This document shows positions 33,509 through 64,000 of a stretch of DNA of 64,000 nucleotides, in pieces. The position numbers were made by a program, and so were the translations under genes. Numbering within the stretch: the first letter of the stretch is position 1; each line of letters opens with the position of its first letter. The stretch is from contig JBMTYG010000001.1 in assembly GCA_049454295.1 (NCBI GenBank), positions 17,454 through 81,453 of the forward strand, read 5' to 3'. The stretch is from Pseudomonadales bacterium. Lineage in GTDB: Bacteria > Pseudomonadota > Gammaproteobacteria > Pseudomonadales > Azotimanducaceae. Below the pieces are notes generated by a model. It saw nothing but the letters and a program-made list of their open reading frames with translations. It had not been told where the DNA came from and searched no databases.

Positions 33509-33519
33509 GGCGAACGCCT

Positions 33520-35274: not shown

Positions 35275-35279
35275 CCCGC

Positions 35280-39509: not shown

Positions 39510-39560
39510 CCTTTCTGCTCCCACAAGCGGTTCGTTCCGCGGCCGCGCCGCGAGACAATG

Positions 39561-47307: not shown

Positions 47308-48163
47308 TGGCATCAAGCCGAGCGAGCCAGTGCGCCCAGTCCCGCGCCCAGCAGCAGACATGGCCAAAACCCGCTACCGTTGCAAAAACCGCGTCGGGTG
47401 CCGCCGCGCGATAGCGCTCGATCAGCTCAGGCGGGACATTCTGGTCCTCGGCGCCCGAGAGATGCAGCGCAGGCGCAGGTGAGACCCGTTTCAGTTCAGC
47501 AGGATTGAGCGAGCCTTCAAGCGCGCTGAAACCGTGAGCGTTAGTCCACGCATCGGTATCCAGATTGGCTGCAACCGTCAAGACGGCGCTGACCTCAGGC
47601 ACGCGATCAGCCACGAGCACGGCAAGCACACCACCACCAGAATAGCCAATGAGCACCACCTCGCGCGCTTGGTGTCGCGCCGCCGTGCGCCGAACCGCGA
47701 GCGCAAGCGCATCGACCACCCGCGGTCCATAACGAGCGATAGTCCAGTCGCGAGCATCACAACCCGTCTGCAGACCGTGATAACAGGGGCGTCCGAGATA
47801 GATCGCCGGCTGAGGGTCCGACACCATCAGATCGAGCACGAGGGGCGCTCGGGGGGTCGGATCCCGCGCGATGCGCCGCGGCGTGACAAACGGGCGACCA
47901 TCACCATCCAGGTAAATGTGCAGCCGAGCGCCGGGTTCACCGGTATGTGTGGTCGTGAAGGTACGCAGAGCAAAAGCACCGGCCGTCACTTCCCCGAGTG
48001 CCAAACCCCGTTCCCGCGCGGAATCATCGAACACGCGATAGGGCGCACTCGCGCATCCCGAAAGCACCCAGCACAGGGTCAAAAGGCCTGCTGCACCCGC
48101 TTTGCAAATGCCCCCTGTGGGCGCTAAGGTCATGCGACAAAGGGGCCCAACGGAAAACCTCAT
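47210..48163 (-). CDS. Alpha/beta hydrolase, probable lipoprotein
   Basis: Lipobox LTLCWVLSGC. LHIYLDGDG, VVLIGYSGGGVLAV (G-x-S-x-G), GFGHVCCW. Start uncertain (ATG 48163 or 48133; track 48316 overlaps the divergent gene). Its 3' end overlaps the kinase 3' end by 98 nt. Confidence 0.65.
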   Translation of the reverse strand: MRFSVGPLCRMTLAPTGGICKAGAAGLLTLCWVLSGCASAPYRVFDDSARERGLALGEVTAGAFALRTFTTTHTGEPGARLHIYLDGDGRPFVTPRRIARDPTPRAPLVLDLMVSDPQPAIYLGRPCYHGLQTGCDARDWTIARYGPRVVDALALAVRRTAARHQAREVVLIGYSGGGVLAVLVADRVPEVSAVLTVAANLDTDAWTNAHGFSALEGSLNPAELKRVSPAPALHLSGAEDQNVPPELIERYRAAAPDAVFATVAGFGHVCCWARDWAHWLARLDAITFPRTERARRSTDPAPPPAGRDASPGNRRSP

Positions 48164-48185
48164 GTTCAGGTCTCTCGACTCGATA

Positions 48186-49923: not shown

Positions 49924-50967
49924 CTAGAGGAAATTGCTCGCTAACCAGAGCGCAGCGCCGGTTGCCGCCGCGACCATGAGACCGATGATGAGGTTGCGGC
50001 GTCCAGAGCCACTCCCTTTAGCTTTGCCCGGGCGCGAGGAGGCGGGGCTCTTAGCGCGGGCCGCGCTGCCGTACAAGCGAATCTCACATTCCACCTGAGC
50101 GAACCGCAGCTTGTCGCCCTGCTGGAGATAGCTGATCGTCGTCTTATGTCCGTTCACCCAGGTGCCATTAGCAGACATCTGGTCAATGATGCGCCAGCGC
50201 CCGCTCTCTTCGACAATTTTCGCGTGGTAGGCGGACACGCCGGAAAACTCGAGGCGAATATCGCGCTCTTCCGCCGTGCCGATGGTCCACTCCCCTCGAC
50301 CCTCAACGAGGGCAAAGGCCATGCCCGCTGCCGGGCCTGCCACAATCACCAGGTGCGGTCCCTCGATGTGCATGGGCGCAGGCGCCTCGCCGGGGGTAGC
50401 AGGCGCATTGCCACCGCCTTCCGCCAGAGCGCGCATTTCCTCCGCCGAGAGGATACGCGTACCCTCCCCCTGATAGTCCGGGTCCGCCCAACTCCTCGGC
50501 ACATGGCTCTGCAATGCCTCGGCCTCAAACCGCGGCGCGGCGGGAGCAGGCTCAGGGGCTGCGGCTGCGGCTTCAGGGGCTGCCGCTGCCGGGGTTGCGG
50601 GACGCATCACCGTCGCGTCAGGCTCTGGAGAACGGCGAATGACGGTGACGTCAGCGTCGTCGACTGCTTCCGCTTCCGGCGCCTCGACCACAAAGGACGC
50701 GAGATCAAACGCAACCCGATCGCCTCGATAGAGCAATGTGCGTGAGGCAATGCGCTGCCCGTTAACCGTCGTGCCGTTCGCGGAACCCAGGTCCTCGACC
50801 CACAAGCCATCGTCATCCAGCGTGAGCATCGCATGGCGTCGCGAAGGATGCCCTTCCGTTACCTTGAGCGCCGCATCATCACCGCGCCCCACAAGCGTCG
50901 GACCACGAATCTCGGTGCGATCGGAACCGCCCGGGTCATCGCCTTTGATCAGAAAGAAACCGCTCAT
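49924..50967 (-). CDS. Tail-anchored protein with two FHA domains
   Basis: FHA1 LVGRGDDAALKVTEGHPSRRHAMLTLDDDGLWVEDLGSANGTTVNGQRI. Ala/Pro linker. FHA2 TIGTAEERDIRLEFSGVSAYHAKIVEESGRWRIIDQMSANGTWVNGHK. C-terminal TM RRNLIIGLMVAAATGAALWLASNFL. The ATG overlaps the PP2C stop (ATGA). Confidence 0.88.
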   Translation of the reverse strand: MSGFFLIKGDDPGGSDRTEIRGPTLVGRGDDAALKVTEGHPSRRHAMLTLDDDGLWVEDLGSANGTTVNGQRIASRTLLYRGDRVAFDLASFVVEAPEAEAVDDADVTVIRRSPEPDATVMRPATPAAAAPEAAAAAPEPAPAAPRFEAEALQSHVPRSWADPDYQGEGTRILSAEEMRALAEGGGNAPATPGEAPAPMHIEGPHLVIVAGPAAGMAFALVEGRGEWTIGTAEERDIRLEFSGVSAYHAKIVEESGRWRIIDQMSANGTWVNGHKTTISYLQQGDKLRFAQVECEIRLYGSAARAKSPASSRPGKAKGSGSGRRNLIIGLMVAAATGAALWLASNFL

Positions 50968-51749
50968 GAGGATCTCATCCACATCCAGATTGAAAACGCC
51001 AGAACCCCGACCAGGGCACCGGCCAGCACGGGGATCCACGCCGAAGATACCGGAGAATAACGGATCACGATGGCCGTTGCGTCATCACCGCCACGCTGCG
51101 CGCGCACCGCTTCGATCAGCGCATCCGCACACGCCTGCGGGTCGTCCGTATCGGCAACGATTTCCGCCATGCGGCGATCATTGAGCTCGCCGGTCACGCC
51201 GTCCGTGCAGAGCAGCAGAAGATCATCCGGTTCAAGCTGCATTCGGACTTGGTCGATACTCGGTTGCTCAAACCCGAGGCAGCGCAGCAGCACATTGCGA
51301 TCCGGGTGGGTCTCAGCCTGCGCAGGGCTAATGCGTCCCTGCTGCACCATCTGCTGCACGAGAGAGTGATCCCGCGTCAGCCGTCTTAGCTCTCCATCCC
51401 GCCACAGATAGGCGCGACTGTCGCCTACCCACGCAATGCGTGCCTCTCCGCTGCGCTGCTCGACATGCGCAGCCACCACCGTGGAACCCATTCCTCGACG
51501 TGCCCGCACTTCGCTACCTTTGCGCACGACGGCTGCATGGGCGTCAGCAATGGCATCGACCAATCCGCGCTTCCGCTCTACTGCGAAGAGCACGCTGTCT
51601 CGAGCTACCTGGCTTGCAACATCACCCGCCGCGTGGCCGCCCATGCCATCGGCGACGACCCAGACGCCACGACCCGGGAGCGCGCCGTGGGCGTCCTCGT
51701 TCACCTGATGACGTACCCCGGTGAGCGTCTGCACGCCATAGCTGGTCAT
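50964..51749 (-). CDS. Tail-anchored PP2C-family Ser/Thr phosphatase
   Basis: VNEDAHG, VVADGMGGHAAGDVAS, LLLCTDGVTGEL, GGDDATAIVI. C-terminal TM WIPVLAGALVGVLAFSIWMWM. Starts 5 nt after the stop of the c554-like cytochrome gene. Confidence 0.9.
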   Translation of the reverse strand: MTSYGVQTLTGVRHQVNEDAHGALPGRGVWVVADGMGGHAAGDVASQVARDSVLFAVERKRGLVDAIADAHAAVVRKGSEVRARRGMGSTVVAAHVEQRSGEARIAWVGDSRAYLWRDGELRRLTRDHSLVQQMVQQGRISPAQAETHPDRNVLLRCLGFEQPSIDQVRMQLEPDDLLLLCTDGVTGELNDRRMAEIVADTDDPQACADALIEAVRAQRGGDDATAIVIRYSPVSSAWIPVLAGALVGVLAFSIWMWMRSS

Positions 51750-51754
51750 GGCGT

Positions 51755-53020
51755 TCAGAGACTGGCCGCAAGACGGGTCATGGCAACCCGGAATTTCGCC
51801 GGATCATAGCTGCGGTCTGTTTCGACAGTTGCGAACACCGCATCCAGCGCGCCCTGCAGGCGATCGTGGTCGCCGATGTGGTAAGACAGACTTTCAATGC
51901 CGAGAAACGCCTGCTCGGCCGCAGCGAAGTCGGTGAGCGTTCCATTCGCGCCCATCTGCCCGATTGCCTTACGCACCGCCAAGGCCTGGGCAGCGGAGGC
52001 TTTGCCCGTGGTCCAGGGCTGACTGTCGATCCAGCGCGCAAGTTCCGCTGCCGCTGTGCGCGTTGCCGGTACGCTCTGCTGCCCGGCTTTGAGATAGGCA
52101 ACCTGAAGCCGCCGCAAGTTGTCGAGCTCAGCGGGTGCAAGCACGCTGGCGACCGCCCGCAGCATATACAGATGCTGGTCCTGTAGACGCAGACCGCCAG
52201 GCTCAAGGCCCTGTTGACGCCGCTCCTCAGCCCAGCGCAGATCGTCCATCGGGTGATGACAGCTGTGGCAGTCGAAGAACGCAAAGTCTGGCACACCCTC
52301 GCGCAAGAGCGGGGTATTCAGAAGTTCGAGGTGCCGACGGGCGCTTTGCAGCTGTCCTGCGCGCCAGACGTCGAACCCACTCGGCTGCCCCTTGCGCTGC
52401 ACATAATCTTCGTCGACCCCATAGTGCGCGGGCTGATTCACCGTATACGCCTCAAGCTCGAACGATAGGCGCGGGTGGCCTGCGCCCATGATGCGGTGTG
52501 TGGCGAACTGGTTGCCGGTCCCAAGGTGACAGGACAGACAAACTTCGGCACGGACGTTGATGTCCTCGGTCGCGAGCATACCCTTGGCCAGATTGTCGGC
52601 ATGACGCGTGCCGGGTTCGGTGTGGGTTTCAAGCCAGAGCTCCGCACCCCCATGACAGGCTTCGCAGCCAACGCCGTCGGACAGCTGGAACTTGGGTCCA
52701 CGCTGCTCCGCCGGCACATTGTCGGCGTGGCAGTCGAGGCAGATCTTCGCCGTATGCGCACTCGGCAAACCGAGCTTACGCGCGATCGCCTTGGACTCCG
52801 GCGTGAGCAGTGTTTGATAGGCTCCCGAGTGCTGGTCCTCGGAAGACCAAATACGGTACTCATTCAGCCAGACGTTACTGTTCGCCTGCTCCTCCAGCTT
52901 GCCATGACACACACCGGTCGCGCAGCTCGCCACGCCCATGTGCTTGCGCGAGTCCAGCGGCTCGGCAGCGGCAGGCAGCCCCACCAGCAGCAGCAGCAAA
53001 AGCGCGGCGCGTCCCATCAC
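51755..53020 (-). CDS. Periplasmic multihaem c-type cytochrome (cytochrome c554-like N-half, helical C-half)
   Basis: Signal peptide AALLLLLLVGLPAAA. Four CxxCH (CLDCH, CEACH, CLSCH, CHSCH) plus one CX4CH-like site (CATGVCH), all in the first about 260 aa. Start GTG 53020 or ATG 53017, overlapping the upstream stop. Confidence 0.8.
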   Translation of the reverse strand: MMGRAALLLLLLVGLPAAAEPLDSRKHMGVASCATGVCHGKLEEQANSNVWLNEYRIWSSEDQHSGAYQTLLTPESKAIARKLGLPSAHTAKICLDCHADNVPAEQRGPKFQLSDGVGCEACHGGAELWLETHTEPGTRHADNLAKGMLATEDINVRAEVCLSCHLGTGNQFATHRIMGAGHPRLSFELEAYTVNQPAHYGVDEDYVQRKGQPSGFDVWRAGQLQSARRHLELLNTPLLREGVPDFAFFDCHSCHHPMDDLRWAEERRQQGLEPGGLRLQDQHLYMLRAVASVLAPAELDNLRRLQVAYLKAGQQSVPATRTAAAELARWIDSQPWTTGKASAAQALAVRKAIGQMGANGTLTDFAAAEQAFLGIESLSYHIGDHDRLQGALDAVFATVETDRSYDPAKFRVAMTRLAASL

Positions 53021-56000
53021 CGGCCACCTCCTGCCATTGGTTGCTCGGGCATGGTCTCCGGGGTCGCGACGGGCGCCGGCTCTGCCGAGGGCATCGCGTT
53101 GGTCACGGACCAGGGCTTGCCGTCCTTCAAGTAGAGCCGATGCATCTCAGGCAGCGTGAAGGGCCGCGAACCACGACGCCCAAACACCGCTACCTGGCCA
53201 CCCGTTTCATCGACGCCCCGGTCGCGCTCCAGCCCCTTCGACAGCGACAAGGCCGGCGTCGTGGTCGGGAAGTGGGCGATGAGTCGAGGATTCGGTTCAG
53301 GGCTGAATCCGTAGAATTTGGGCTGCAGTTCCGGCGAGGTGAGTTGCAGCACCTTGAGTCCGCCCGCGCCGTCAGCCACATAGGCGAACAGCGAGGCATT
53401 CGTTGAGGCCACAACCACGTCGCGCGCGTCCACCAAACGCCCATCGGCATTGAACTGCCGATACGCGCGCATAGCCTCCGGTCGCTCGACATCTACGATC
53501 AGTACACCGTCACGTCCCGCCGCAACGTAGGCATAGGTACGCGACACAAAGACGCCGTGCGCGTCAGCCACTGGGACCGTGTTGTTAGGAACCAGGCGCG
53601 GCACCTCCGGCTGGGTCACGTCCACGGCCTTTAGACCCTCGGCGTCTGTCACAAACAGATAGCGGAATTGCAGCGACGCCCCACGCGGTTCCACCAAGGG
53701 AAGCGTTGCCGTCAGGGTCGGCGCCAGCGGGTTATCCACATTCACGATCACGAGCGCCGCGGGCGTTAGCACATAGGCGTAGTGACCGCCCAGGGTAATG
53801 AAGCGTGCGCCGTTCAACACGCCACCGGGGTTCCAGGTCGCCCCGCGCTTGAGGAAGTTGTTGCGCGGTTCGCCGTCGACCAGTGTGTCGACGTTGACGG
53901 TGATCAGCCCTTCTTCAGCGTCGGTGATGAACATGTAGCTGTAGATCGGGTGGATCGGCTGCTCCATGTTGGTGACGCGCATGAGTTCGCCTTCGTTACG
54001 CGCCGGATTGACCGGCTGGTTCGTCGGCAGCGCCATGCAGGTCGCGTTCTTCGACTCCACCCGCGTGTCATGACCAAGCGGACTGAACGGCGCCGTGATG
54101 ATGCGTTGGGAAATGCCCTTATTCGAGACACTGGCCGCATCGAATACGCGCGTGCCCTCGGATCCAGCGGCCGCAAACACATATTCGCCGCGCAATTGCA
54201 CGCAGTGGATCGGCCCGCTCGGGTGGTTGTAGCCGTGCTCGAGCTTCTGACCGCGCGTTTCGTGATCACGGAACCAGTCCGGATACGCATAACGATGCAG
54301 ATAGCTGCCAATGACTGCCTGAGGCTCATCCCACTCCGTCACCTGCACCGCTTCGAGCGAGCCTTCCGCGCCGACCCAAGCGTTGTAGCCGATGAAGTTG
54401 ATGAAGTTGGTCCCGAACATGAGCAGCTGCGCCATGATCGCGTTGTTGTCATTGCGTTCCGAGATGTGGCAGTCCTCGCACATCTTGGTTTCGGTCTTGC
54501 GTTCCGTGTGCGGATAGTGGGGGTTGAAGGCCTGCGAGGAATAACCGCTTGAGGCAATCGGCGGCTGCTGAATATAGATCTTCTCACGGTTCGCATTGGT
54601 CGAGGACAGGACCAGCGCCGACGTCGAGCGCACCGGCGCAATCTTGCCGCTCTTCGACGGCTCACGCATGCCGAGCAGGAACATGTCGTCCCGCGCCACC
54701 TGCGGGTTGTAGGTCGCGTAATTGCGGCTCTCACCGCCCTCGTAGTGGTGCCGCTCGGTCTTCCAGTTCGCTTCGATCGGCAGATGGCAGCCGCCGCAGG
54801 ACGTCGTCCAAGAGGTATGACAGGTGTAGCACTCCATGTTCTCATCGGAGTGCGCAAGCTCACCGCTTGGCACCTGAGGACCCCATGTCTGTTTGGCCGT
54901 GTCGCGGCTCATCAGCTTGGATCGCGCGGCCACCGGGTTAAAGGCGGGATTGCCCGGCGTGACGGAGTCCTTGACCAGCGACATTTCCCACTCGAGCTTG
55001 GGATCCAGCATGGAGCGCTGATAGAGCTTGTCGCCGATCCACTCAAACCGACGCCGTCCGTCCGGCGTCCGCAGCGTCGTCAGATCCATTCCGCCTTCGA
55101 GCGCAGCTGGCCCCGAGGTGTACAGGTTGGGGTACGACTTCGCCGTGCCATGACAATCCTTGCAGCCGATCTCGACGGCAAGCGCCACCTCGCCATGAAT
55201 GTGGCCGTTGCCGTGGTTGTCCTGAGAGAAATGACAGTCGACACAGTGCATGCCCACATCCACGTGAATCGATGACATGTGCACGGCTTTGTCGAACTTC
55301 TCTGGATCCTCGTCCGAGACCTTGTTGCCCTCGGCATCGAGCAAATTGCCTTTGCGATCGCGCTTGAAGATCGCGCGGAAATTCCATCCGTGACCGTGGT
55401 AATCCGCGAACTGGGTGTCCGAGAGCTGCGGGTTCAGGTCGGATACGTTCTTCAGGAATTCCACATCCGCCCATTTACCCCGGGGCGCGGCACCCTCTGG
55501 GTTGCGATCGAGCGTCTTGCGCACCTCTGCATCGCTTGGGTACTGCTGCTCCTCCGGCCACATGTGCGGCGCATCGGATTCATAGTCCCACATGGTGTAA
55601 CCCAGATAGGTGTTCATGAACATGTTGGGCTGGTGCATGTGGCAGATCATGCATTGGCTGGTCGGGATCGCGCGGGTGAAGACATGCTGCAGCGGATGCC
55701 CGGTGCGATCCTTCGGAATGGTTGGGTCCAGCGTGATGCTCTTGCCCTCGTGACCATGCTGCGCATAGGGCCCGGAATGCCGGGGATCACGATCATTGGC
55801 ATAGACCACATGGCAGGAGGCACAGCCCGAATTGCGATAATCACCCGGTTGATCATTGGTACCCGAGAACCACAGGAACGGATCATTCAGACGGGTCTTG
55901 GTGATGTTGATGAGCGGCACTGAGATGCGAGCGCCGGTCCCAGGACCACGGTTTGACTGACGGATGTCGGGACGCCCAGGCTCCTCAATGCGTTGCAGCT

Positions 56001-56817
56001 GGCCGAGCGAATTTGGCAGGCCTGTCTCTGGAAACAGATTGCTGATGTTGCGCCCGCCACGCTCGAACACGCGGAAAATGTCGCCGGGTTTAACCGTCTC
56101 CCAGGTCGGAAGCGGGTAGAGATAGGGCAGCACGCCCTTCGCTTCCATTTCATCCTTGAGCTCATCCGGCACCTTCGGTCCATAGAGAATCGAAGGCTGT
56201 CCGTCGTCGGTATAGGACTCGCCGATCATGTAATTCTTGAACGGCAAAATGCCGTTGTTATACGCGGCTCCACCCCAGAGCATGGCGCCCGTCGCATGGA
56301 GGCTGCGAATGGATGCCTCGATTATTCCTTGGTGACACGCGCCACAGGCGAGAGAAGCCACGCGATTGTCCGACGGGTTAGTGAAGCGTATGAATTCGCG
56401 CGACTCGCGGTTTAGCAGCGTGTACGTGCGTTCGGGGTTGGCGCTCGAGGGGTAATGCCAGTCATCCGGGTAGCGCGGCAGCACGTGCGCCTGTTCCTGA
56501 ATCGCCGTGTATTGGGCGCTGCCCGCGGGGACACCCTCCTTAAGGGATACACCCGCATTGCCGCCATGACAGTCAGTACAACCGAGGCGTACCGCCGGGT
56601 TTACGTGCATGGTCTTGGTATCAGACTGGGTATGGCAGGAGATGCAGCCCTCACTTTTTGCTGCCGCTTGGGCCACGGTCTGACGTTCAGGCGCGGCGGG
56701 CGCCATAACGTAATCACGCTCGACCGCCTTCGATGCAGAACTCGCCCACGCCGCCGGAAGCGCGCCGACCGTGGCGAGAACGACAACGAGACTCTTGACC
56801 AGTGTTCGTTTGTCCAT
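53017..56817 (-). CDS. 1266-aa secreted decahaem c-type cytochrome fused to a C-terminal LVIVD-repeat (beta-propeller) region
   Basis: Signal peptide LVVVLATVGALPAAWA. Ten CxxCH between residues 58 and 785: CISCH, CTDCH, CGACH, CASCH, CMICH, CVDCH, CKDCH, CYTCH, CGGCH, CEDCH. C-terminal repeats are described in the next entry. The start codon shares 1 nt with the porin stop (TGATG). Confidence 0.85.
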   Translation of the reverse strand: MDKRTLVKSLVVVLATVGALPAAWASSASKAVERDYVMAPAAPERQTVAQAAAKSEGCISCHTQSDTKTMHVNPAVRLGCTDCHGGNAGVSLKEGVPAGSAQYTAIQEQAHVLPRYPDDWHYPSSANPERTYTLLNRESREFIRFTNPSDNRVASLACGACHQGIIEASIRSLHATGAMLWGGAAYNNGILPFKNYMIGESYTDDGQPSILYGPKVPDELKDEMEAKGVLPYLYPLPTWETVKPGDIFRVFERGGRNISNLFPETGLPNSLGQLQRIEEPGRPDIRQSNRGPGTGARISVPLINITKTRLNDPFLWFSGTNDQPGDYRNSGCASCHVVYANDRDPRHSGPYAQHGHEGKSITLDPTIPKDRTGHPLQHVFTRAIPTSQCMICHMHQPNMFMNTYLGYTMWDYESDAPHMWPEEQQYPSDAEVRKTLDRNPEGAAPRGKWADVEFLKNVSDLNPQLSDTQFADYHGHGWNFRAIFKRDRKGNLLDAEGNKVSDEDPEKFDKAVHMSSIHVDVGMHCVDCHFSQDNHGNGHIHGEVALAVEIGCKDCHGTAKSYPNLYTSGPAALEGGMDLTTLRTPDGRRRFEWIGDKLYQRSMLDPKLEWEMSLVKDSVTPGNPAFNPVAARSKLMSRDTAKQTWGPQVPSGELAHSDENMECYTCHTSWTTSCGGCHLPIEANWKTERHHYEGGESRNYATYNPQVARDDMFLLGMREPSKSGKIAPVRSTSALVLSSTNANREKIYIQQPPIASSGYSSQAFNPHYPHTERKTETKMCEDCHISERNDNNAIMAQLLMFGTNFINFIGYNAWVGAEGSLEAVQVTEWDEPQAVIGSYLHRYAYPDWFRDHETRGQKLEHGYNHPSGPIHCVQLRGEYVFAAAGSEGTRVFDAASVSNKGISQRIITAPFSPLGHDTRVESKNATCMALPTNQPVNPARNEGELMRVTNMEQPIHPIYSYMFITDAEEGLITVNVDTLVDGEPRNNFLKRGATWNPGGVLNGARFITLGGHYAYVLTPAALVIVNVDNPLAPTLTATLPLVEPRGASLQFRYLFVTDAEGLKAVDVTQPEVPRLVPNNTVPVADAHGVFVSRTYAYVAAGRDGVLIVDVERPEAMRAYRQFNADGRLVDARDVVVASTNASLFAYVADGAGGLKVLQLTSPELQPKFYGFSPEPNPRLIAHFPTTTPALSLSKGLERDRGVDETGGQVAVFGRRGSRPFTLPEMHRLYLKDGKPWSVTNAMPSAEPAPVATPETMPEQPMAGGGR
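53323..54216 (-). other. LVIVD-type repeat region (at least 6 repeats) of the 1266-aa cytochrome
   Basis: Residues about 868-1165: IHCVQLRGEYVFAAAGSEGTRVFDA; IYSYMFITDAEEGLITVNVD; GARFITLGGHYAYVLTPAALVIVNVDNP; GASLQFRYLFVTDAEGLKAVDVTQP; AHGVFVSRTYAYVAAGRDGVLIVDVERP; ARDVVVASTNASLFAYVADGAGGLKVLQLTSP. Confidence 0.7.
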
Positions 56818-58709
56818 CAGTACGCAAGCACCAGGTTGAAAAGGATGTAATCCGCTTCTTCATCCGGGAACAGGTCGTCCCATCCCTTGCCCGGCAACAG
56901 CCGCGCCCAGGACGCCCGCAACACCACGTTCTGGGTCATGAACGGCCGGTAGGTGAATGACACCGACACGTCATGCCCGATCTCCTCATCAATAGGCGCC
57001 TGATTGCGCGCCGCTTCCAGCACTTCGGTACGATCGAAGCGCAAATAATTCCAGTTCACGCTCGCGCGAAGTTCAGGCAGCACATCGAGATCGACCCCGC
57101 CGCCCACCAGCCAAAGCCCTGGGTTGGTGAAGTTCGACTGGCCTTCCTCTTTCGAAGAACGCAGCGAAGGCAGCACGCCATTGCGGCCGGACAGGGCCAC
57201 ACGACCACCACCCACCAGCGGCACCGCCTGACGGATCCAGTAGCTCGTATCGGCACCCGCAAATTGGGGGTTCTCGAAGATCGCGTCGAACCCGTTGTCC
57301 TCATCGTCGTAGGGATCTTCATCGCCCGTTGCGTAGAGGAACGAGAGTCGCGGCCGAATCCAGCTGAAATCCATCGACGCTTCCGCCGCGAAAAAGCCTG
57401 CGGCGATATCGACCTTGCGATCGACGAAAGTGCCGGGGTCGCCCTCGCCAACGGCGAGGTAGGCGGATGCGGTCAAGTTGAAACGACCAAAATGTCCATC
57501 GCCGTTCAAACCGACATAGGTGACCTCATACCCCCGCGGCCGCTCGCCGCCGACCGAGGCTGGGCGCTGGATAAAGCCGTTTTCGTCGTAATAAAAATCG
57601 TCGTCCTCGCGGTTGCTGTTGTGCATCACCGTCGCCTGCGAGACAAAGCCCTTAACAGGGAAGTCCTGCCAATACACATTGGCAGCGATCACATCGTCAT
57701 CGCGAACGGATTTGGCCACATCGTTAAGACCGCTATTGGTGTCCTTTTCGAGACGTCGAAACCAGGCCAGGTTGTACTGGAAGACGTTATTCGAACGATT
57801 TCCGAAGAGACGAACACCCAGCTGATTGTCCTGAAACAGGAAGCCACGGAAATCTGAGGAAAACGGCTGGATGCCGACACGCAGACTGTCGAAATCATAG
57901 CGATCGGACACGTTTCGCAAATGCTTGTCGACAAACAGCGCTTGAATACCCACGTGTTCATCCGTGCGGTCCTCGCCGTGGCGCGGGTTCACGTTGACGC
58001 CCTGGACTTCTTCCAGCTCGACATAATTGACGTTGAACACGGGGATAAACCGGAATTCCCAATCCGGCGGGCGGAACACGGTGTCACCCTGGTAATACAC
58101 GAACTCGAGCGCCACGTTCTCGACCGCGACGAGCTGCTCGGGTGCGCCGAAGATACCGAGTCCGCCAGGACCCGCTGTGGAATTGCCGCCCACCGGGGTC
58201 GGCACGTCACGGATCTCGAGCACGCTGTCCGAGATCACGCCCAGATTGAAGAACCAGTCATCGTGGATCGGCCGATCACCTTTCAGCGTGTTCTGGTTGT
58301 ACGGATCCCACCAATTGTCCGGGTAGCCGAGCGTGTTCACGATGCGCCAGCGGTCGGGCAGCGGCACACGGTCTACATAGTCCGGCAGCCCGGGTCGCGG
58401 CACGACCGAAGCCGGGTTGGGTTTACGATCTGCCATGGCCGGAGAAATGCGCTGCCACTCGGACTGGCGAATGCGTCGACGGGTCGCCGCATTCGATACG
58501 GGCGCAGCTGCCTCGGACGCCGTATCACTCCCCTCGGCTGGGGCCGGGCAGGGCACAGGCTTGAAGCCGGGACGCCGGCGCTGAACGATGCGACCCTCGT
58601 CGTTCTGGTAGCACACGGCCTCCGCGGCTACGGCGGTTGGCGCCCAAGGTAGCGCGAGCAGCAGCGCCGTGCTGCCACCCAGGAGCAGCCTGCTTACTTG
58701 TTTACGCAC
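56817..58709 (-). CDS. Large outer-membrane beta-barrel protein (putative porin/sheath of the cytochrome cluster)
   Basis: Signal peptide RLLLGGSTALLLALPWAPTAVA. WWDPYNQNTLKGDRPI, then several hundred residues of alternating hydrophobic/polar strands (FFNLGVISDSVLEI, VALEFVYYQG, WEFRFIPVFNVNYVEL, FQYNLAWFRRL, VSVSFTYRPF) ending in aromatic ..FNLVLAY. Start GTG 58709 or 58751; either overlaps the upstream gene. Confidence 0.75.
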   Translation of the reverse strand: MRKQVSRLLLGGSTALLLALPWAPTAVAAEAVCYQNDEGRIVQRRRPGFKPVPCPAPAEGSDTASEAAAPVSNAATRRRIRQSEWQRISPAMADRKPNPASVVPRPGLPDYVDRVPLPDRWRIVNTLGYPDNWWDPYNQNTLKGDRPIHDDWFFNLGVISDSVLEIRDVPTPVGGNSTAGPGGLGIFGAPEQLVAVENVALEFVYYQGDTVFRPPDWEFRFIPVFNVNYVELEEVQGVNVNPRHGEDRTDEHVGIQALFVDKHLRNVSDRYDFDSLRVGIQPFSSDFRGFLFQDNQLGVRLFGNRSNNVFQYNLAWFRRLEKDTNSGLNDVAKSVRDDDVIAANVYWQDFPVKGFVSQATVMHNSNREDDDFYYDENGFIQRPASVGGERPRGYEVTYVGLNGDGHFGRFNLTASAYLAVGEGDPGTFVDRKVDIAAGFFAAEASMDFSWIRPRLSFLYATGDEDPYDDEDNGFDAIFENPQFAGADTSYWIRQAVPLVGGGRVALSGRNGVLPSLRSSKEEGQSNFTNPGLWLVGGGVDLDVLPELRASVNWNYLRFDRTEVLEAARNQAPIDEEIGHDVSVSFTYRPFMTQNVVLRASWARLLPGKGWDDLFPDEEADYILFNLVLAY

Positions 58710-60718
58710 ACGTCCTCCTCGCTGCTGTCGCGGAACGGTGCCTGCGGGCACTGCACGTAGCGCAAGCGCACGTCGCGCGGTGTCAGCGTGTCCGCACGTT
58801 GCGCCCTGGGGGCATTGCCCACAGAGCCGTTGAGCGCAATGCCACCGTTGTGTGCGCCCAGAAACGCGATCATGTCGTCCTGATCGACGCCATCGCCCGA
58901 TACGCCAATACCGCCAACCAGCGTTGTGCCGCGATAGAGCGGTACCCCGCCAGGAAAGATCTGCAGCCCGTTGGCGAGCTGACGGCTATTGGTGGTCTGC
59001 GTTGCAACCAGTGACGCTGCCAGTTCGATGCCCGCGCAGTTCGTACCTACATCCGGAGTGCCTACCCCCGCGACAAACAGCACATGCTGGAGGATTGCGT
59101 TGTGCGCCAGATCGAGCTGCAATCCGGTCGAGAACGCGCTCCACTCGGCAAACGGCTTTGAGAGCGGGCCGTGTGGTTCGCTCTGCAGACCGTCCGGATA
59201 GAACGGACGCGAAAGATTGGCGATGCTGCGCTCGGCAAAAGCGATCGCGCCATCGCCAAGCAGCGTGGGCATGCCGGTGAAGGCGCGCAGGTCAGTGATG
59301 TAGGTGCCGATCGGGCTTGGCGTGAAACTGACGGCGTCAGAAGCCGTGGTCAAATACTGCGCCGCCGGCAGACCCGTTAGAAATTCCGCTGCGGTCGGGG
59401 CCGAAAACAGTGTCGCTGACCGCGCCTTCTGCAACGAAACGTCGGCACCAAACACGGGCGCGTCACGCGTGCGCACCATGCCAAGAATTTCCCCCCGGGT
59501 GTCGACTACGCTGATGGTAACCCGCGCCTGACTGCCGAGCGGACGACGGATCTGTGCGCGGGCACGATTCGCGACTGCAAGCGCCTCACGCAGGAGAACG
59601 CGCACCTCATTCTCCGAAAGCCCGCCATCGGTCCCCGCACGGGGCGGAAACCGGGGCTGATCGCTCGCATCAACAAAGATAAACGCGTCCTGCCCCGGGA
59701 AATCGACCGTGTCAGGTCTAATCCCCGAAGCCGGGTCGCCAAACGACACGCCCTGACGCAGGTTACCGTCCGTGTAGCCCGGCACGGGAACCAGCCCACC
59801 ATCCGCCGCAGTGAGCGTGCTGAACCCCGGCGCGGACGCCGGATCTCGCGCCAGATTGGAAAATTCAACATCGCTGAAGCGGAACGTCTTGCCGTCGACC
59901 GTAATCCGGTCCGCGCGTCGGTCCGGCGGTGCGGCAAACCCAAAGGTCGCGGCGGTGGCAATGAGTTCGTCCACATCGCGGTCGCTATCGGCGATAAATT
60001 TATCAAGGCTGTAGCGTCCATCTGCGATAGCACCGACGCCACCCACCACGGTGCCGTTTTTATAGAGCGGCATGCCACCGGGATCTGCAGACAGCCCAAG
60101 CGGCGACCGCTGCGGACCGACAGTGACCCCTAGTCCATCGGCGCGCTGCATGAAATCCGAGCAGGCAAGCTGGCTGAACTGGACGCCAAACAGCGGGCCC
60201 CCTGCCTGATCGCGCTCACCGGGGTTGAAGTGCTCCTGCACAATCTGGCCTGCCGTGCGGGTGGTGAAGGCGTTGCCCTCGCTCGAGAGATAAGCACCCG
60301 TGACCGCCTTGGCAATCGCTGCCTGATGGTCGAGCGCGAACGGCAGTCCCGGCTGCGGCAGTGCGATGCCCTCGAGCCCACCCGACACCGTGGCGCGCCC
60401 CTCGTCATCCGTCGCCGTCGCGATGAGCACAGGCAGCGGATCGGCGCCCATACGATAGACACCGAGGACATTACCCACCCGGTCAACGACCGCGAGCGTA
60501 GCCCGGACATCGCGCGCCTTTGCCTCAGCCACCCCCTGAGCCAGTACGCGCTCCACTTCGGCGACGGTCAGCAGCGTCGAGGTGTCGGCACAGGACCCGC
60601 TGCACCCTCCGCTCGGCGGCTGGCTGGTCCCGGTGGTGCTGCCGCTGCCACCTCCGCCACCGCAGCCGGCTAGCGCCAGAACGGCAATCAGGGCGGCAAA
60701 AAAGGGAGTTCGCATCAC
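58694..60718 (-). CDS. Lipoprotein with two GlcG/HbpS-like (DUF336, haem-binding/haem-degrading type) domains
   Basis: Lipobox AVLALAGCGGGGGSG. Domain 1: LTVAEVERVLAQGVAEAKARDVRATLAVVDRVGNVLGVYRMG..GGMPLYKNGTVVGGVGAIADG. Domain 2: LSENEVRVLLREALAVANRA..ARVTISVVDTRGEILGMVRTRDAPVFGADVSLQKARSATLFS..GGVPLYRGTTLVGGIGVSGDGVDQDDMIA. Confidence 0.7.
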   Translation of the reverse strand: MMRTPFFAALIAVLALAGCGGGGGSGSTTGTSQPPSGGCSGSCADTSTLLTVAEVERVLAQGVAEAKARDVRATLAVVDRVGNVLGVYRMGADPLPVLIATATDDEGRATVSGGLEGIALPQPGLPFALDHQAAIAKAVTGAYLSSEGNAFTTRTAGQIVQEHFNPGERDQAGGPLFGVQFSQLACSDFMQRADGLGVTVGPQRSPLGLSADPGGMPLYKNGTVVGGVGAIADGRYSLDKFIADSDRDVDELIATAATFGFAAPPDRRADRITVDGKTFRFSDVEFSNLARDPASAPGFSTLTAADGGLVPVPGYTDGNLRQGVSFGDPASGIRPDTVDFPGQDAFIFVDASDQPRFPPRAGTDGGLSENEVRVLLREALAVANRARAQIRRPLGSQARVTISVVDTRGEILGMVRTRDAPVFGADVSLQKARSATLFSAPTAAEFLTGLPAAQYLTTASDAVSFTPSPIGTYITDLRAFTGMPTLLGDGAIAFAERSIANLSRPFYPDGLQSEPHGPLSKPFAEWSAFSTGLQLDLAHNAILQHVLFVAGVGTPDVGTNCAGIELAASLVATQTTNSRQLANGLQIFPGGVPLYRGTTLVGGIGVSGDGVDQDDMIAFLGAHNGGIALNGSVGNAPRAQRADTLTPRDVRLRYVQCPQAPFRDSSEEDVCVNK

Positions 60719-62391
60719 GGGTCGGTCTCCGTCGCGACGGTGGGGTGGAATTCATGGCAATCGATGCAGTCGACGGGGATCAGCTGCGGCTGATGGCGAT
60801 CGCCATGACAACTCACGCATTGCTGAATATCCGGCATCAGCACGTCGCTGCTCGCGGTCGACGTATCCGCTGCATGGCAGTCGAGGCACGCATCGTCCCC
60901 GGCGGCGTCTTGCTGGGTCAGATGCGCGGCGTGATCGAAACGCGCGCTGCGGAAAAAGTCCGGGGTTAACCGAACCGGCGCTACCTGATAACGCCCGAGC
61001 AGATCATCCGTATCGTGCACCGCGACCTGGTGACAAGTGACACAGCCCCGCACGGTAAACTGGGTTTCTGCCTCGCGCGCGGTGCGCTCTCGAGCACAGA
61101 TATACGCCGGACCGGTGCAGGTCTCTGCCTGACGCGCATGATCGGGCAACCGACGCCAGGTTCGCTTTGGCAGGTCGAGCGTTGGGTCCGCGAACACGCG
61201 CATGTAATGACCTTCCATCACCAGCAGCGCTTCGCTGGGATTCCCGTGCGGCAATTCGCGATCAGGCGCCGTGCGATCGAACTTGAGATCATGGCAGTCG
61301 CGGCAGTGCTGCTCCATACGAATGGGCGCGAAATGTTCGCCATCGGGCTGCAGGGTGTGACAATCGGCGCACACTAGCGCAGCCCCGGTCGTGAGGTTTT
61401 GCACCTTGCCCGGATCGAGATGCACGTCGTGCGGGTACTTGAGGTTTGACGGATCCACTGCGTCTGGTAATGGGCTCGACTGCCAGGTCCAATCGTAGGC
61501 GAAGCCTGTGCCCCGCCGCACGTGACTGCTGGTGAGCAGATCAACGGCAAACGGTGCGTGGTCCGCCTCGGAGAAACCGGCCACCGCCGCGAGCCGATTG
61601 TCCGGCCAATCCGGTTCGGCGTGACAGTCGGTGCAGAGCGTATCCGCGCGGATCACCAGATGCGGCGGCGTGTTGTGTTCCTTGTGACAGGACGCGCAGC
61701 GGACGGTATCGAGCCCCACATGGCTGTTGAGCGGCTCCGGCGCGTGGTTCGCCATCGCGCCATGGCAGGTCGTGCAGGCAGTGTCCGGCACTCGTTCGAA
61801 CGGCTTCACGTGACAGGCCTTGCAATCATCGCCCACCGCGACCGCGTGCGCAGGCAGCAATGGACCGCTAGACCAGACATCATCAGTGCTCCACCAGGGA
61901 ATCGCGTCGATATCCACTGCGAAAGGAAGCACGAGTCCAAAGAGCAGCACGATGCCCGCCAAGATCCACGCCGGGCGCCGACGGCCAAGCCGGGTCTGCT
62001 CGAGATCTACGGAGAACGCTGCCTCGAACGCTGCGGGTGAAACTTCTTTCTGCGGCTCTACCTCCAGCGCCCCGGCGAATCCCGCAGGGGGCTTTAGCAC
62101 CCGCACGCGCGCGCCGGCGAGCTCAAGCGTCTGCCCTGGTTCAAGGCGACCGCTGCCCACTGCCGCCCCGTCAATCGCAACGGCGCTGCCACGCACGCAG
62201 CGAACGTCGAAGGCCACCCCAGACGGCGTAAGCGTCACATGCTGCGGCGCCACGTCGGCGCCATACACCTGAATCACCGCGTCGACCGAACTGCCCAGCG
62301 TGACTGCAGGGACTGTGACCTCCCGATCGCGAAATACCGCGCTGGGTGTGCCGGGAAGACCTGAGATGAGTTCGCGCAGAAGAATTTGCAC
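60715..62391 (-). CDS. Inner-membrane-anchored decahaem c-type cytochrome (c3/c7-like repeats) with a cytoplasmic FHA-like N-terminal domain
   Basis: Residues 20-100: FRDREVTVPAVTLGSSVDAVIQVYGADVAPQHVTLTPSGVAFDVRCVRGSAVAIDGAAVGSGRLEPGQTLELAGARVRVL (FHA-fold pattern). RLGRRRP followed by TM AWILAGIVLLFGLVLPFAV. Ten CxxCH: CKACH, CTTCH, CASCH, CTDCH, CADCH, CRDCH, CVTCH, CLDCH, CVSCH, CIDCH. Confidence 0.8.
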   Translation of the reverse strand: MQILLRELISGLPGTPSAVFRDREVTVPAVTLGSSVDAVIQVYGADVAPQHVTLTPSGVAFDVRCVRGSAVAIDGAAVGSGRLEPGQTLELAGARVRVLKPPAGFAGALEVEPQKEVSPAAFEAAFSVDLEQTRLGRRRPAWILAGIVLLFGLVLPFAVDIDAIPWWSTDDVWSSGPLLPAHAVAVGDDCKACHVKPFERVPDTACTTCHGAMANHAPEPLNSHVGLDTVRCASCHKEHNTPPHLVIRADTLCTDCHAEPDWPDNRLAAVAGFSEADHAPFAVDLLTSSHVRRGTGFAYDWTWQSSPLPDAVDPSNLKYPHDVHLDPGKVQNLTTGAALVCADCHTLQPDGEHFAPIRMEQHCRDCHDLKFDRTAPDRELPHGNPSEALLVMEGHYMRVFADPTLDLPKRTWRRLPDHARQAETCTGPAYICARERTAREAETQFTVRGCVTCHQVAVHDTDDLLGRYQVAPVRLTPDFFRSARFDHAAHLTQQDAAGDDACLDCHAADTSTASSDVLMPDIQQCVSCHGDRHQPQLIPVDCIDCHEFHPTVATETDP

Positions 62392-62400: not shown

Positions 62401-63270
62401 CTACCAATAAATGAAGGTGGAGAGGATGTGCACGATAAGTGCCACGAGGGTACCGATAGTGAGCGGCACATGCAGGTATAACCACGCCTTGAGCCAGCCC
62501 TGCAGGCGAATATCGGAACGCAGCCGGCGCAACACGGCCTGACGCCGGCAGAGCACCGCCAGCAGGTCTTGCAGCACGCCAACCTCCGCGCGTCGATCCG
62601 CGCGCGTCAGCCGGCCTGCGACCAGGTCGATCACCGGCGCCTGGTCGATATTTGGCTGGACACCGCCCTCAAGGGTCTCGAACGCGGAGCGGTCGCGTGC
62701 AGAGAGCTGCGCCGCGACACCGCCGCCTAAGGTGGTGCGTGCAATACTCGATTGCACGGCGAGCTGCACGTCGGCACTGGAACGAGCAGCCAGCTCGCGT
62801 CCCTTGCGATTCAGCTCATACAATTCCGCAAACAGCTCCGAGCGCCCATGCCCGGCGCGGAGCGTCGCAATCTGTAGCGGATAATTGAGGTAACCATACA
62901 GCCCGACGATGCCGCTCACGATGACGATAGACATGAGCGCCCACGCGAGCGTGTGAATATTCCAACCGAACTGGAATCCACAGTGCAGGGTCGCAAGCAC
63001 CCAAACCGCGAGACCCAGGTAGACATGAGCCGAGGTCCAACCCTGCACGGTACCAGAGCGCGCCCGATAGCTGCGCTTGCGAATTCCAAGCCAGGCGAGC
63101 CAGACAATCAGAAGCGCCGCCCAGGTGCCAAGGACATAGCCTTGCCAGGTACCTCCGTTCGGCGGCTCAGTAGTCTGGTGCGAAACATAAATACCAATGC
63201 CGCCCGCAATGCTGAACAGCCCCCACCAGAGATACCGATAGCTACGGTATCGGAGCAGATTAGCGAACAT
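62401..63270 (-). CDS. Five-TM membrane protein with two His-x13-His pairs (putative di-haem b, ferric-reductase-domain-like)
   Basis: Trimmed to ATG 63270 (289 aa). TM3 SAHVYLGLAVWVLATLHCG (H82/H96) and TM5 WLYLHVPLTIGTLVALIVHIL (H267/H281), each with exactly 13 intervening residues. About 130-aa soluble loop between TM4 and TM5. Confidence 0.65.
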   Translation of the reverse strand: MFANLLRYRSYRYLWWGLFSIAGGIGIYVSHQTTEPPNGGTWQGYVLGTWAALLIVWLAWLGIRKRSYRARSGTVQGWTSAHVYLGLAVWVLATLHCGFQFGWNIHTLAWALMSIVIVSGIVGLYGYLNYPLQIATLRAGHGRSELFAELYELNRKGRELAARSSADVQLAVQSSIARTTLGGGVAAQLSARDRSAFETLEGGVQPNIDQAPVIDLVAGRLTRADRRAEVGVLQDLLAVLCRRQAVLRRLRSDIRLQGWLKAWLYLHVPLTIGTLVALIVHILSTFIYW

Positions 63271-64000
63271 CGGACTGCAGCAGCCGAATGAACTGTTCAG
63301 GGTTGACGCGCTGGGCCGCACCCGTGGGGCACGCGCGCACACATGCGTAGCCCAATGGGTCATTCACGCAAGCGTCGCACTTGACCGCCCGTTTGCCCTG
63401 TTCTTTCGACCGCGCGTCCGGCGTGAATGAAGCCGGCTCGCCCGGACCCGGCCCGCGGCCGAACAAAAGCCATTGCAGCAGACCCGGCTTCTGCGGCGCA
63501 GCATAGGAGAGACGAATCACATCGTAGGGGCAGTTCGCTTCACAGTTGCCACAGCCAATGCAGGTATCAGCGATATAGACCTGCCCGTCTGCGGCACGGG
63601 AGATGGCGTTGGGCGGACAATCCTTCATGCAATGCGGATGCTCGCAGTGACGACAGGCGATCGGCACATGAATATTGGCGAAGGTCTTGCCCGCCGCGCG
63701 ATCCAGGCGCGAGAGCCCCTCATGGGTCTCGGCGCAGGCGCGCTCGCAGTTGTCGCAGCCGATACAGAGCGTCTCGTCAATCAGGAGGGTATCCGTTGCT
63801 TCACCGAGCCCTTCCTCGAGCAGGAAGCTCATGATGCCGCTGCTCTCCGGGCGCACCTCCATCTGCGTATTGTCCGTCAGCCGCGCCTGCGCCCGAGCCT
63901 GCAGCGCTTCGATGTTGGCGGACGGCAAATTCATCAGCGCAAGGAACTCCTTGCGGGATAGTTCGATGGTTTCCGTCGCCACCGTCGCGAGCGCGGTTTC
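63260..64000 (-). CDS. Ferredoxin-type protein with four [4Fe-4S]-like Cys groups (3' part; the reading frame stays open to the window end)
   Basis: CIGCDNCERAC, CRHCEHPHCMKDCP, CIGCGNCEANCP, CDACVND..CVRACP (DmsB/NrfC-like arrangement). The track start at 63982 is an internal GTG, and the frame continues upstream (..ETALATVATETIELSRKEFLALMN), so a further N-terminal domain lies outside the window. Confidence 0.75.
   Translation of the reverse strand, partial: ETALATVATETIELSRKEFLALMNLPSANIEALQARAQARLTDNTQMEVRPESSGIMSFLLEEGLGEATDTLLIDETLCIGCDNCERACAETHEGLSRLDRAAGKTFANIHVPIACRHCEHPHCMKDCPPNAISRAADGQVYIADTCIGCGNCEANCPYDVIRLSYAAPQKPGLLQWLLFGRGPGPGEPASFTPDARSKEQGKRAVKCDACVNDPLGYACVRACPTGAAQRVNPEQFIRLLQSDVR

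Follow-up and report, generated by a model that had tools for sequence, protein, structure and literature searches.

A stretch of 64,000 nucleotides from a Pseudomonadales bacterium of the Azotimanducaceae (GenBank assembly GCA_049454295.1, contig JBMTYG010000001.1, positions 17,454 to 81,453 of the forward strand; this whole stretch is referred to as the window) encodes a membrane-anchored decahaem cytochrome which, in a preliminary description made from the sequence alone, was reasoned to carry a domain similar to the forkhead-associated (FHA) fold at its cytoplasmic end. The question raised by this locus is which function such a domain fulfils on a protein whose haems are expected on the other side of the membrane. 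The answer favoured here, to which a probability of about 55% was assigned, is that the domain serves as a phospho-independent cytoplasmic docking handle on an NAD(P)H-fed, envelope-spanning electron conduit, which is regulated by a co-encoded threonine-phosphorylation module.

The FHA fold of the cytochrome and its degenerate phosphothreonine site

The cytochrome is encoded by the open reading frame 60715..62391 on the (-) strand (558 residues), the GTG start codon of which is located 9 nucleotides past the stop codon of the upstream membrane-protein gene. It contains exactly ten CxxCH motifs (residues 190, 206, 232, 253, 341, 363, 450, 502, 525 and 542), all of which were found to be invariant among 64 homologues. 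In the preliminary description the FHA-like region was placed at 62092..62334, which corresponds to residues 20-100, and was reported to be followed by the motif RLGRRRP, one transmembrane (TM) helix and ten CxxCH sites; this order was found as stated, with the motifs TLGSS, VAPQH, GSAVAIDG and RLGRRRP locating to residues 31-35, 47-51, 68-75 and 134-140, respectively. When a mean Kyte-Doolittle hydropathy of more than 1.6 over 19 residues was taken as the criterion for a TM helix, a single stretch of the cytochrome exceeded the cut-off (approximately residues 139-166), and a hydrophobic N-terminal signal segment, which was looked for in the same protein, was not found. The 16 residues flanking this stretch on its N-terminal side include four Arg, those on its C-terminal side no Lys or Arg but three Asp. 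Attachment of c-type haem takes place in the periplasm (Ccm system), for which reason the first approximately 140 residues of the cytochrome are assigned to the cytoplasm. The predicted topology (N-terminus in, one TM helix, haems periplasmic) thus rests on the positive-inside rule and on the known maturation of c-type haems, and it agrees with the cytoplasmic N-domain and periplasmic haems proposed earlier.

Within the protein four segments can be delineated, all encoded on the (-) strand, namely the cytoplasmic FHA-fold domain (residues 1-112, 62056..62391), a juxtamembrane linker whose conservation is documented by alignment column counts (residues 113-140, 61972..62055), the predicted TM helix (approximately residues 141-163, 61903..61971) and the predicted periplasmic decahaem c domain (residues 164-558, 60715..61902 including the stop codon), the last of which matches the Pfam families Cytochrom_c3_2, Cytochrome_C7 and Paired_CXXCH_1. 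An identity of the cytochrome as a NapC/NirT- or CymA-like protein was considered and found to be unsupported, as a Pfam scan at E<=1 gave no match to the NapC/NirT profile PF03264 and the anchor helix comes after a 140-residue cytoplasmic domain.

A Pfam scan of the whole cytochrome at E<=1 did not return an FHA family but only cytochrome c3/c7 and paired-CXXCH families; likewise, no FHA family was obtained in an NCBIfam scan, and neither PF00498 (FHA) nor PF16697 (YscD-type FHA) was matched by the N-domain of the window protein in Pfam at E<=0.01. As the FHA domain is invisible to direct scans of the window protein, its assignment had to come from homologues, from a family profile and from a structure model. 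An alignment of 69 homologous N-domains (alignment A1) was prepared, and of these domains, when scanned singly, 61 matched PF00498 (best E 2.4e-10) and 55 matched PF16697 (best E 4.4e-13). Comparison of the A1 profile with the sequences of the Protein Data Bank (PDB) identified KIF13B (7.5e-8) and GarA (2.1e-7) as best matches, followed by Rv0020c, OdhI, EmbR and Ki-67, whereby the matches to KIF13B, GarA, Rv0020c, OdhI and EmbR span E values from 7.5e-8 to 1e-5. The AlphaFold2 model of residues 1-140, which was computed with alignment A1, obtained a mean predicted local distance difference test score (pLDDT) of 92.1 and a predicted template-modelling score of 0.82 and revealed a beta-sandwich of 11 strands within residues 2-112, followed by a short helix (residues 119-125, comprising the motif FEAAF). 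With this model as query, the best 50 Foldseek matches in the PDB were all FHA domains (probability 1.0, target-normalised template-modelling scores 0.5-0.7), among them GarA, Rv0020c, TIFA/TIFAB, KIF13A/B, Ki-67, EmbR, EssC, EscD and YscD. It had been left to structure searches to distinguish between an FHA domain and a degenerate domain of the YscD/EssC type; here, YscD, EscD and EssC are present but rank 31-48, beneath the small canonical FHA domains. Considering these lines of evidence together with the modelled structure, the assignment of residues 1-112 to a genuine FHA fold, as it had been proposed from strand spacing, is regarded as secure.

The pThr-binding site of this domain was found to be degenerate. 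Next to the fold, the preliminary description had claimed that the residues contacting phosphothreonine (pThr) in canonical FHA domains are substituted in the window protein, with GSS for GR, APQH for SxxH and GSA for SxNG. The HMMER alignment to GarA confirmed that GS replaces GR, that A-x-x-H replaces S-x-x-H and that the S-x-N motif is missing, as the G-R, S-R-R-H and S-l-N-G-T motifs correspond to G33-S34, A48-P-Q-H51 and G68-S69-A-V, and the substitutions extend over the 69 family sequences. The canonical Arg position (residue 34) is occupied by Ser in 55 of them; at the canonical Ser position (residue 48) Ala (34 sequences) and Gln (10) prevail, followed by Leu, Gly and Arg, so that Ser is outside the five commonest residues; and the canonical Asn position varies between Ala, Leu, Cys, Asn and Ser. 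The structural FHA residues are kept, with G33 found in 69/69 and H51 in 66/69 sequences. As judged from the aligned sequences, loss of the pThr-contacting Arg, Ser and Asn is a trait of the family and not a quirk of the window gene. The FHA domain of KIF13B, i.e., the best sequence match, likewise possesses GS instead of GR.

The N-terminal module also possesses conserved features which are specific to the family. These are the N-terminal strand LLRE (L4 in 68/69 and R6 in 67/69 sequences), the residues Q41 and G44, and a PPAGF motif (P102, G104, F105) leading into an extra strand, of which G104 and F105 are invariant. Ahead of the TM helix follows the juxtamembrane motif F/Y-x-T-x-L-x-Q-T-W-L-x-K-R, in which T128 occurs in 59/69 sequences (the window protein has Val here), T133 in 61/69 and R138 in 69/69.

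A search for the same fusion in other genomes was successful. In total, 428 relatives of the window cytochrome were detectable, and about 110 of the best 120 retain the N-terminal region from residue 1; many of the relatives carry precomputed PF00498 or PF16697 assignments, and some are named 'FHA domain-containing protein' by NCBI. A scan covering one genome per species identified relatives in the genomes of 198 species, cultured Steroidobacter, Peristeroidobacter, Marinobacter, Chromatocurvus, Parahaliea and Pseudohalioglobus among them, and the best 80 loci were taken for further analysis with 10-kb flanks on each side. These loci include Steroidobacteraceae, Woeseiaceae, Halieaceae, Marinobacter, Granulosicoccus, Agarilytica, Oceanicoccus, Aquimonas and two metagenome-assembled genomes (MAGs) of Myxococcales. 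The A1 profile was also searched against 1.84 billion representative proteins, whereby 17,488 proteins were matched. Here, the full 141-position profile matches solely the N-termini of proteins of approximately 530-750 residues or fragments of such proteins, and generic multi-FHA proteins match the core of the profile alone (approximately positions 22-97). Going by these profile matches, the whole N-terminal module is specific to this cytochrome family.

Comparison with the orthologues in locus L001 (90% identical) and locus L002 (80% identical) yielded, for the FHA codons, ratios of nonsynonymous to synonymous substitution (dN/dS) of 0.11 and 0.25, respectively, as compared with 0.03 and 0.07 for the haem domain. 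The FHA region is thus translated and under purifying selection, even though it evolves faster than the haem part. Three apparent homologues without an FHA domain were rejected as such, since two (P0082 and P0118) start at contig ends and the third (P0054) is labelled partial by NCBI; hence these sequences provide no evidence of natural FHA-less forms among the close relatives. Among the relatives a second type of approximately 720-750 residues was observed (P0277, P0302, P0318, P0339 and P0363), which possesses the same N-terminus of FHA domain, PPxGF motif, juxtamembrane segment and TM helix, but differs in its periplasmic part, where a large non-haem insertion separates haem motifs; one member originates from a Halioglobus MAG. 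A cluster look-up of the distant FHA-multihaem relatives of approximately 730 residues returned almost no names.

The conserved operon and its putative electron-transfer and signalling partners

The cytochrome gene belongs to an operon the genes of which are all located on the (-) strand, with stop and start codons overlapping or almost touching. When the window proteins were searched with tblastn against the 80 loci, an identical order of genes was encountered throughout; in these loci the iron-sulphur protein was found 72 times, the membrane protein 78, the HbpS-like lipoprotein 73, the porin 64, the large cytochrome 61, the c554-like cytochrome 58 and the PP2C phosphatase 47 times; most of the missing cases are due to short or cut contigs or to positions beyond the 10-kb flank. 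The operon is conserved in at least 80 genomes, mostly of Gammaproteobacteria.

The first operon gene is cut by the end of the window, within which its C-terminal part (63260..64000, - strand) encodes a domain for four [4Fe-4S] clusters. The reading frame is open to the edge and continues upstream in locus L001. In homologous loci the full protein comprises approximately 850 residues, and Pfam assignments (loci L068 and L021) identified a FAD/NAD(P)H oxidoreductase domain, two cyclic-nucleotide-binding (cNMP-binding) domains and the ferredoxin domain, the latter with 16 conserved Cys residues; neither a Tat nor another signal sequence is present. The second gene (62401..63270, - strand) encodes a membrane protein of 289 residues which is annotated as hypothetical everywhere. 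It is predicted to possess five TM helices with the N-terminus inside and a cytoplasmic loop of approximately 125 residues, and its conservation was followed in sets of 75 and 48 orthologues. Invariant within it are two H-x13-H pairs (H82/H96 and H267/H281), which locate to TM3 and TM5 and which, together with H106, correspond to the pattern of a transmembrane dihaem b cytochrome. The dihaem cytochrome b561 family PF01292 was matched below threshold by all seven sequences of the membrane protein that were scanned (best E 5.6e-6), and comparison of its structure model (pLDDT 85.9) with the PDB returned no fold relative (best E approximately 1). Since this fold search was uninformative, the protein is described as a putative dihaem b-type cytochrome on the grounds of the His pairs and of the sub-threshold PF01292 matches.

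The genes of the membrane protein and of the cytochrome are in the same frame and 9 nucleotides apart in the window. Against this background a homologue of 832 residues (P0113) was considered as a Rosetta-stone fusion of both proteins. It was rejected because the junction turned out to be a frameshifted read of the C-terminus of the membrane protein, whereby TM5 is lost; as read from its sequence, P0113 is a frameshift artefact or a pseudogene in which an out-of-frame stretch precedes the Met of the cytochrome. In a genuine fusion of this type, the FHA domain would come to lie on the incorrect membrane side.

Downstream of the cytochrome gene, and overlapping its stop by 4 nucleotides, starts the gene of a lipoprotein with HbpS-like (haem-binding/degrading) domains (58694..60718, - strand; Pfam PF03928, 3.5e-19). 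It is followed by a gene for an outer-membrane porin-like protein (56817..58751, - strand), whose assignment draws on a weak NCBIfam porin match and on its conserved position in 64 of the 80 loci. Next in order are a decahaem cytochrome of 1266 residues (53017..56817, - strand), with ten CxxCH motifs and matches to the Pfam families LVIVD and Cytochrom_c3_2, and a cytochrome c554-like protein of 421 residues (51755..53020, - strand), which by motif count possesses four CxxCH motifs and one CxxxxCH motif. The LVIVD repeats of the 1266-residue protein were observed in its C-terminal third, and weak partial matches to ExtM, ExtN and ExtO of Geobacter are far under the cut-offs.

The preliminary description had pointed to FHA, PP2C and kinase genes in the same neighbourhood. 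All three were found, and two of them turned out to be the last two genes of the operon. The first of these encodes a Ser/Thr phosphatase of the PP2C type, which is anchored in the membrane by its C-terminus (50964..51749, - strand; Pfam PP2C 7.5e-14, SpoIIE), and follows directly behind the c554-like gene in 47 loci. The other encodes a tail-anchored double-FHA protein (49924..51039, - strand; Pfam FHA 1.2e-29 in two stretches), whose first FHA domain possesses the full canonical set of GR, SRRH and SANGT motifs, while in the second GT replaces GR. The listed GTG start of this gene overlaps the PP2C gene by 76 nucleotides, so that an ATG near 50967, at the PP2C stop, is the likelier start. 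Beyond the operon, a Hanks-type Ser/Thr kinase, which possesses one TM helix and an extracytoplasmic part at its C-terminal end, is encoded on the opposite strand (45676..47307, + strand; Pfam Pkinase 5e-34). Wherever at least 600 bp are available past the c554-like gene, a PP2C gene, a double-FHA gene or both follow directly downstream in almost all cases (approximately 46 of 48 loci); in the two Myxococcales loci the double-FHA gene is located upstream instead. Flanking kinase genes were observed at 16 related loci. In locus L041, the three-gene core of iron-sulphur protein, membrane protein and cytochrome, without the following HbpS-like, porin and cytochrome homologues, is still surrounded by two kinase genes, a double-FHA gene and two Sel1-caspase genes. 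The argument from the neighbourhood is therefore stronger than could be seen from the window, as the placement of PP2C and double-FHA genes is conserved in essentially every sufficiently long locus.

A proposed cytoplasmic docking handle and competing explanations

Based on these findings, the following model is suggested. The cytochrome would constitute the inner-membrane component of a conserved envelope-spanning conduit, in which electrons may pass from cytoplasmic NAD(P)H via flavin and four iron-sulphur clusters to two membrane-embedded haems b, further on to the ten periplasmic haems c and finally to the porin and the 1266-residue decahaem cytochrome. The outward direction of this flow is assumed on thermodynamic grounds. 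The FHA domain would then act as a handle for docking or assembly on the cytoplasmic side, tethering the cytochrome to its partners, for which the flavo-iron-sulphur subunit, the large loop of the putative b subunit and the tail-anchored double-FHA protein are the candidates. As the cytochrome possesses one membrane helix only, its attachment to those parts of the complex which are located in the cytoplasm is most obviously achieved through the FHA domain, and the family-wide loss of the pThr pocket favours docking that is independent of phosphorylation. A threonine-phosphorylation module, with the kinase as writer, PP2C as eraser and the canonical double-FHA protein as reader, would switch the conduit on and off by way of this handle, possibly acting at the juxtamembrane threonines or at a contact between FHA domains. 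The fold, the degenerate pThr site, the conserved gene order and the purifying selection are shown by the data, whereas we infer to which partner the domain binds, in which direction electrons flow and how regulation operates. That the Hanks-type pathway, consisting of membrane kinase, PP2C and double-FHA reader, switches the NAD(P)H-fed conduit precisely through the degenerate FHA domain and the juxtamembrane threonines is put forward tentatively, as a possibility to which less than even odds are given. With respect to the earlier suggestion of a cytoplasmic signalling or scaffolding fold, scaffolding is the better-supported half, since the degenerate pocket makes it unlikely that the domain reads pThr itself. 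Regulated assembly or gating, which had been suggested along with it, is a hypothesis.

Several observations weigh against this model. The near-invariant R6 could belong to a non-canonical phosphate site on the FHA domain, and the synteny with PP2C, FHA and kinase genes would also be in line with a cytochrome whose FHA domain reads a phospho-ligand. The dihaem b assignment builds upon conserved His pairs and sub-threshold Pfam matches, the fold search having come back empty. Finally, a preprint on a related cytochrome of Ferrigenium, considered in the next section, names no adjacent kinase or phosphatase, so that the phospho-module may regulate something else in the operon.

Among the competing explanations, one assumes that the cytoplasmic end of the cytochrome is itself the target of phosphorylation, whereby the kinase would modify T128 and T133, the double-FHA protein would bind these residues or pair via an FHA-FHA contact with the degenerate domain, as in TIFA/TIFAB, and PP2C would reset the system. 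Both threonines are frequent within a conserved motif just ahead of the TM helix, the double-FHA protein and the phosphatase are membrane-anchored and encoded in the same operon, and the structural search returned the TIFA/TIFAB heterodimer among its best matches. The window protein, however, possesses Val at position 128, conserved Thr residues adjacent to a membrane can be purely structural, and the proposal is pure inference, which moreover is compatible with a docking handle rather than exclusive of it; it is considered rather unlikely, with a probability of about one in five. A direct role of the cytochrome FHA domain as pThr reader, binding a kinase-phosphorylated partner and thereby gating electron flow, corresponds to the gating of the preliminary description in its literal sense and is considered improbable. 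This assumption is in line with the true FHA fold, with the pThr-binding domains of GarA and Rv0020c being among the closest solved structures and with the kinase and PP2C genes conserved beside the operon, but it conflicts with the substitution of the Arg, Ser and Asn contacts in nearly every member (Ser at the Arg position in 55/69). Furthermore, degeneration has gone further in the window protein than in most relatives, to the point that a Pfam FHA match is lacking, and with the double-FHA protein a fully canonical reader is already available within the operon.

Slightly more doubtful still is the idea that the FHA domain is an oligomerisation module which arranges cytochrome chains as a ring or dimer under the membrane, as the FHA-like domains of YscD and PrgH do in type III secretion. 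With its degenerate FHA domain at the N-terminus, its single TM helix and its periplasmic domain the cytochrome is indeed YscD-like, the YscD-type family PF16697 is matched by 55 of the 69 homologues, and YscD, EscD and EssC are found among the structural matches; yet these rank 31-48, below the small canonical FHA domains, and the operon is devoid of secretion-system genes. Very improbable, at last, is that the N-terminal 135 residues are not made at all, due to a mis-called start, or represent a functionless, decaying relic. Such a view could invoke the missing Pfam FHA match of the window protein and the faster evolution of its FHA part. It is opposed by N-terminal conservation that starts with residue 1 in more than 110 homologues (including L4 and R6), by the low dN/dS values of the FHA codons, by the position of the start codon 9 nucleotides past the upstream stop, and by the fact that no alternative start ahead of the TM helix is conserved in the relatives.

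Provided that the docking-handle model holds true, its implications concern the control of extracellular electron transfer, which is usually viewed as transcriptionally controlled and quinol-fed. The operon suggests another design, leading from a cytoplasmic NAD(P)H-flavo-iron-sulphur protein via a putative membrane b-type cytochrome and the decahaem c-type cytochrome to a porin-cytochrome set, i.e., a conduit which would bypass the quinone pool. Three layers of post-translational control appear to be encoded, namely the two cNMP-binding domains, the FHA domain on the cytochrome and the set of PP2C, FHA and kinase proteins. Because electrons leaking outward from NAD(P)H would cost reducing power and membrane potential, tight gating would make sense physiologically. 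Switching of the conduit by the Hanks-type pathway, if true, would represent the first instance in which extracellular electron transfer is controlled post-translationally by eukaryote-like Ser/Thr signalling, in analogy to PpkA/PppA/Fha1. As the family is widespread and includes cultured strains, these assumptions are genetically testable.

Related systems and neighbouring genes

The PpkA/PppA/Fha1 system just mentioned belongs to the H1 type VI secretion system of Pseudomonas aeruginosa, where the kinase PpkA, the PP2C phosphatase PppA and Fha1 control assembly post-translationally. It may be taken as the closest model for the window module, as in both cases the genes for a membrane Hanks-type kinase, a PP2C phosphatase and an FHA protein accompany those of an envelope-spanning machine. 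The analogy is limited by the nature of the machine, which is a secretion system in one case and a cytochrome conduit in the other. The FHA-like domains of YscD, EscD and PrgH (type III secretion) and of EssC (type VII secretion) are phospho-independent scaffolds. With the window family they share an N-terminal FHA domain without the pThr residues, followed by a TM segment and an extracytoplasmic domain, and also the PF16697 matches; they differ in being part of secretion machines and in being structurally less similar to the window domain than the small canonical FHA domains are. The FHA domain of KIF13B (PDB 3fm8) binds centaurin-alpha1 without phosphorylation. It possesses GSA in place of GR and the pattern D-I-Q-L-x-G-x-G-I-x-x-x-H, both of which are shared with the window family, although KIF13B is a eukaryotic kinesin-3 motor, so that the resemblance (profile E 7.5e-8) holds at the level of the domain only. 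Among the inner-membrane cytochromes of established extracellular electron transfer routes, CymA/NapC/NirT, ImcH and CbcL resemble the window cytochrome in being membrane-anchored multihaem c-type cytochromes that feed periplasmic and outer-membrane cytochromes. These proteins take their electrons from the quinol pool and, to our knowledge, possess no cytoplasmic domain, whereas the window cytochrome is paired with a cytoplasmic flavo-iron-sulphur protein.

The fusion of an FHA domain with a multihaem cytochrome is not new, as it is evident from NCBI protein names and from two publications. A Gallionellaceae pangenome table of 2023 lists a 'Forkhead-associated protein' with 10 CXXCH motifs in 27 genomes. 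For the nonahaem cytochrome NHC of Ferrigenium straubiae, a cytosolic FHA domain was reported in 2026 by authors who called the combination unreported and its function unknown (bioRxiv 10.64898/2026.01.22.701106, section 6.3.2). The window cytochrome hence belongs to a recently noticed, uncharacterised family and does not represent its first sighting. Compared by description, NHC shares with it the cytosolic FHA domain, the single TM helix and the periplasmic multihaem part, as well as the location beside a 5-TM protein and a cytosolic [4Fe-4S] protein. NHC differs in carrying nine instead of ten haems and in originating from a betaproteobacterial iron oxidiser; its reported neighbours are nirK and an SHP-like gene, and a porin-cytochrome set, PP2C, double-FHA protein and kinase are not mentioned. 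In the TM protein of Ferrigenium the authors found no redox motif, while the window counterpart possesses two invariant H-x13-H pairs.

A second point of comparison is the ptdABCDEFG operon of marine Alpha- and Gammaproteobacteria, the function of which was called 'completely unknown' (bioRxiv 10.1101/2023.11.21.568154). By architecture, its decahaem cytochrome PtdG is encoded beside the ferric-reductase-like TM protein PtdF and the cNMP-binding 4Fe-4S protein PtdE, and a FAD/NAD(P) oxidoreductase, a porin and a tetrahaem cytochrome are part of the operon as they are in the window-type cluster. Differing from the latter, PtdG is called periplasmic in that paper, which mentions neither an FHA domain nor phospho-signalling genes. 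Moreover, oxidoreductase and cNMP/iron-sulphur parts form one protein of approximately 850 residues in the relatives of the window operon, unlike in ptd; the large outer cytochrome of the window has ten haems and LVIVD repeats, that of ptd five haems and a beta-sandwich; and the HbpS-like lipoprotein is an additional component of the window operon. Porin-cytochrome clusters with a large decahaem cytochrome and a nearby ferredoxin-NADP reductase were also described in a MAG study of 2026. A search of the available literature library for a link between extracellular electron transfer and PP2C together with FHA proteins returned nothing, and no published report was found of the conserved association of the FHA-cytochrome operon with PP2C, FHA and kinase genes. 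While the two preprints flagged parts of the system as new and of unknown function, the present work adds that the pThr triad is lost throughout the family and that the family is widely distributed, and further contributes the His pairs of the membrane partner and the near-universal co-encoding of PP2C, canonical FHA and kinase proteins; of these findings, the link to the phospho-module and the His pairs provide testable hypotheses.

Besides the kinase gene, two further genes are located beyond the operon. These encode a Sel1-repeat protein with a caspase-like (peptidase C14) domain (48102..49913, + strand), which was identified by Pfam and is found in nine related loci, and an alpha/beta hydrolase (47210..48316, - strand). 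Kinase, Sel1-caspase and hydrolase genes were found upstream of the operon in Halieaceae, Marinobacter and Woeseiaceae, and the three were observed to travel together beside the operon in several gammaproteobacterial families (loci L067, L068, L071, L073, L080, L013 and L041). Immediately upstream of the kinase gene and on the same strand, a DUF5916 protein of 828 residues is encoded (43148..45634, + strand). In the remainder of the window that was surveyed (13120..40871), ordinary housekeeping genes are found, among them those for methylcrotonyl-CoA carboxylase subunits, an acyl-CoA dehydrogenase, an ammonium transporter, threonine synthase, an Orn/DAP decarboxylase, a Mg-chelatase-like ATPase, a D-Ala-D-Ala carboxypeptidase and a beta-lactamase-fold protein.

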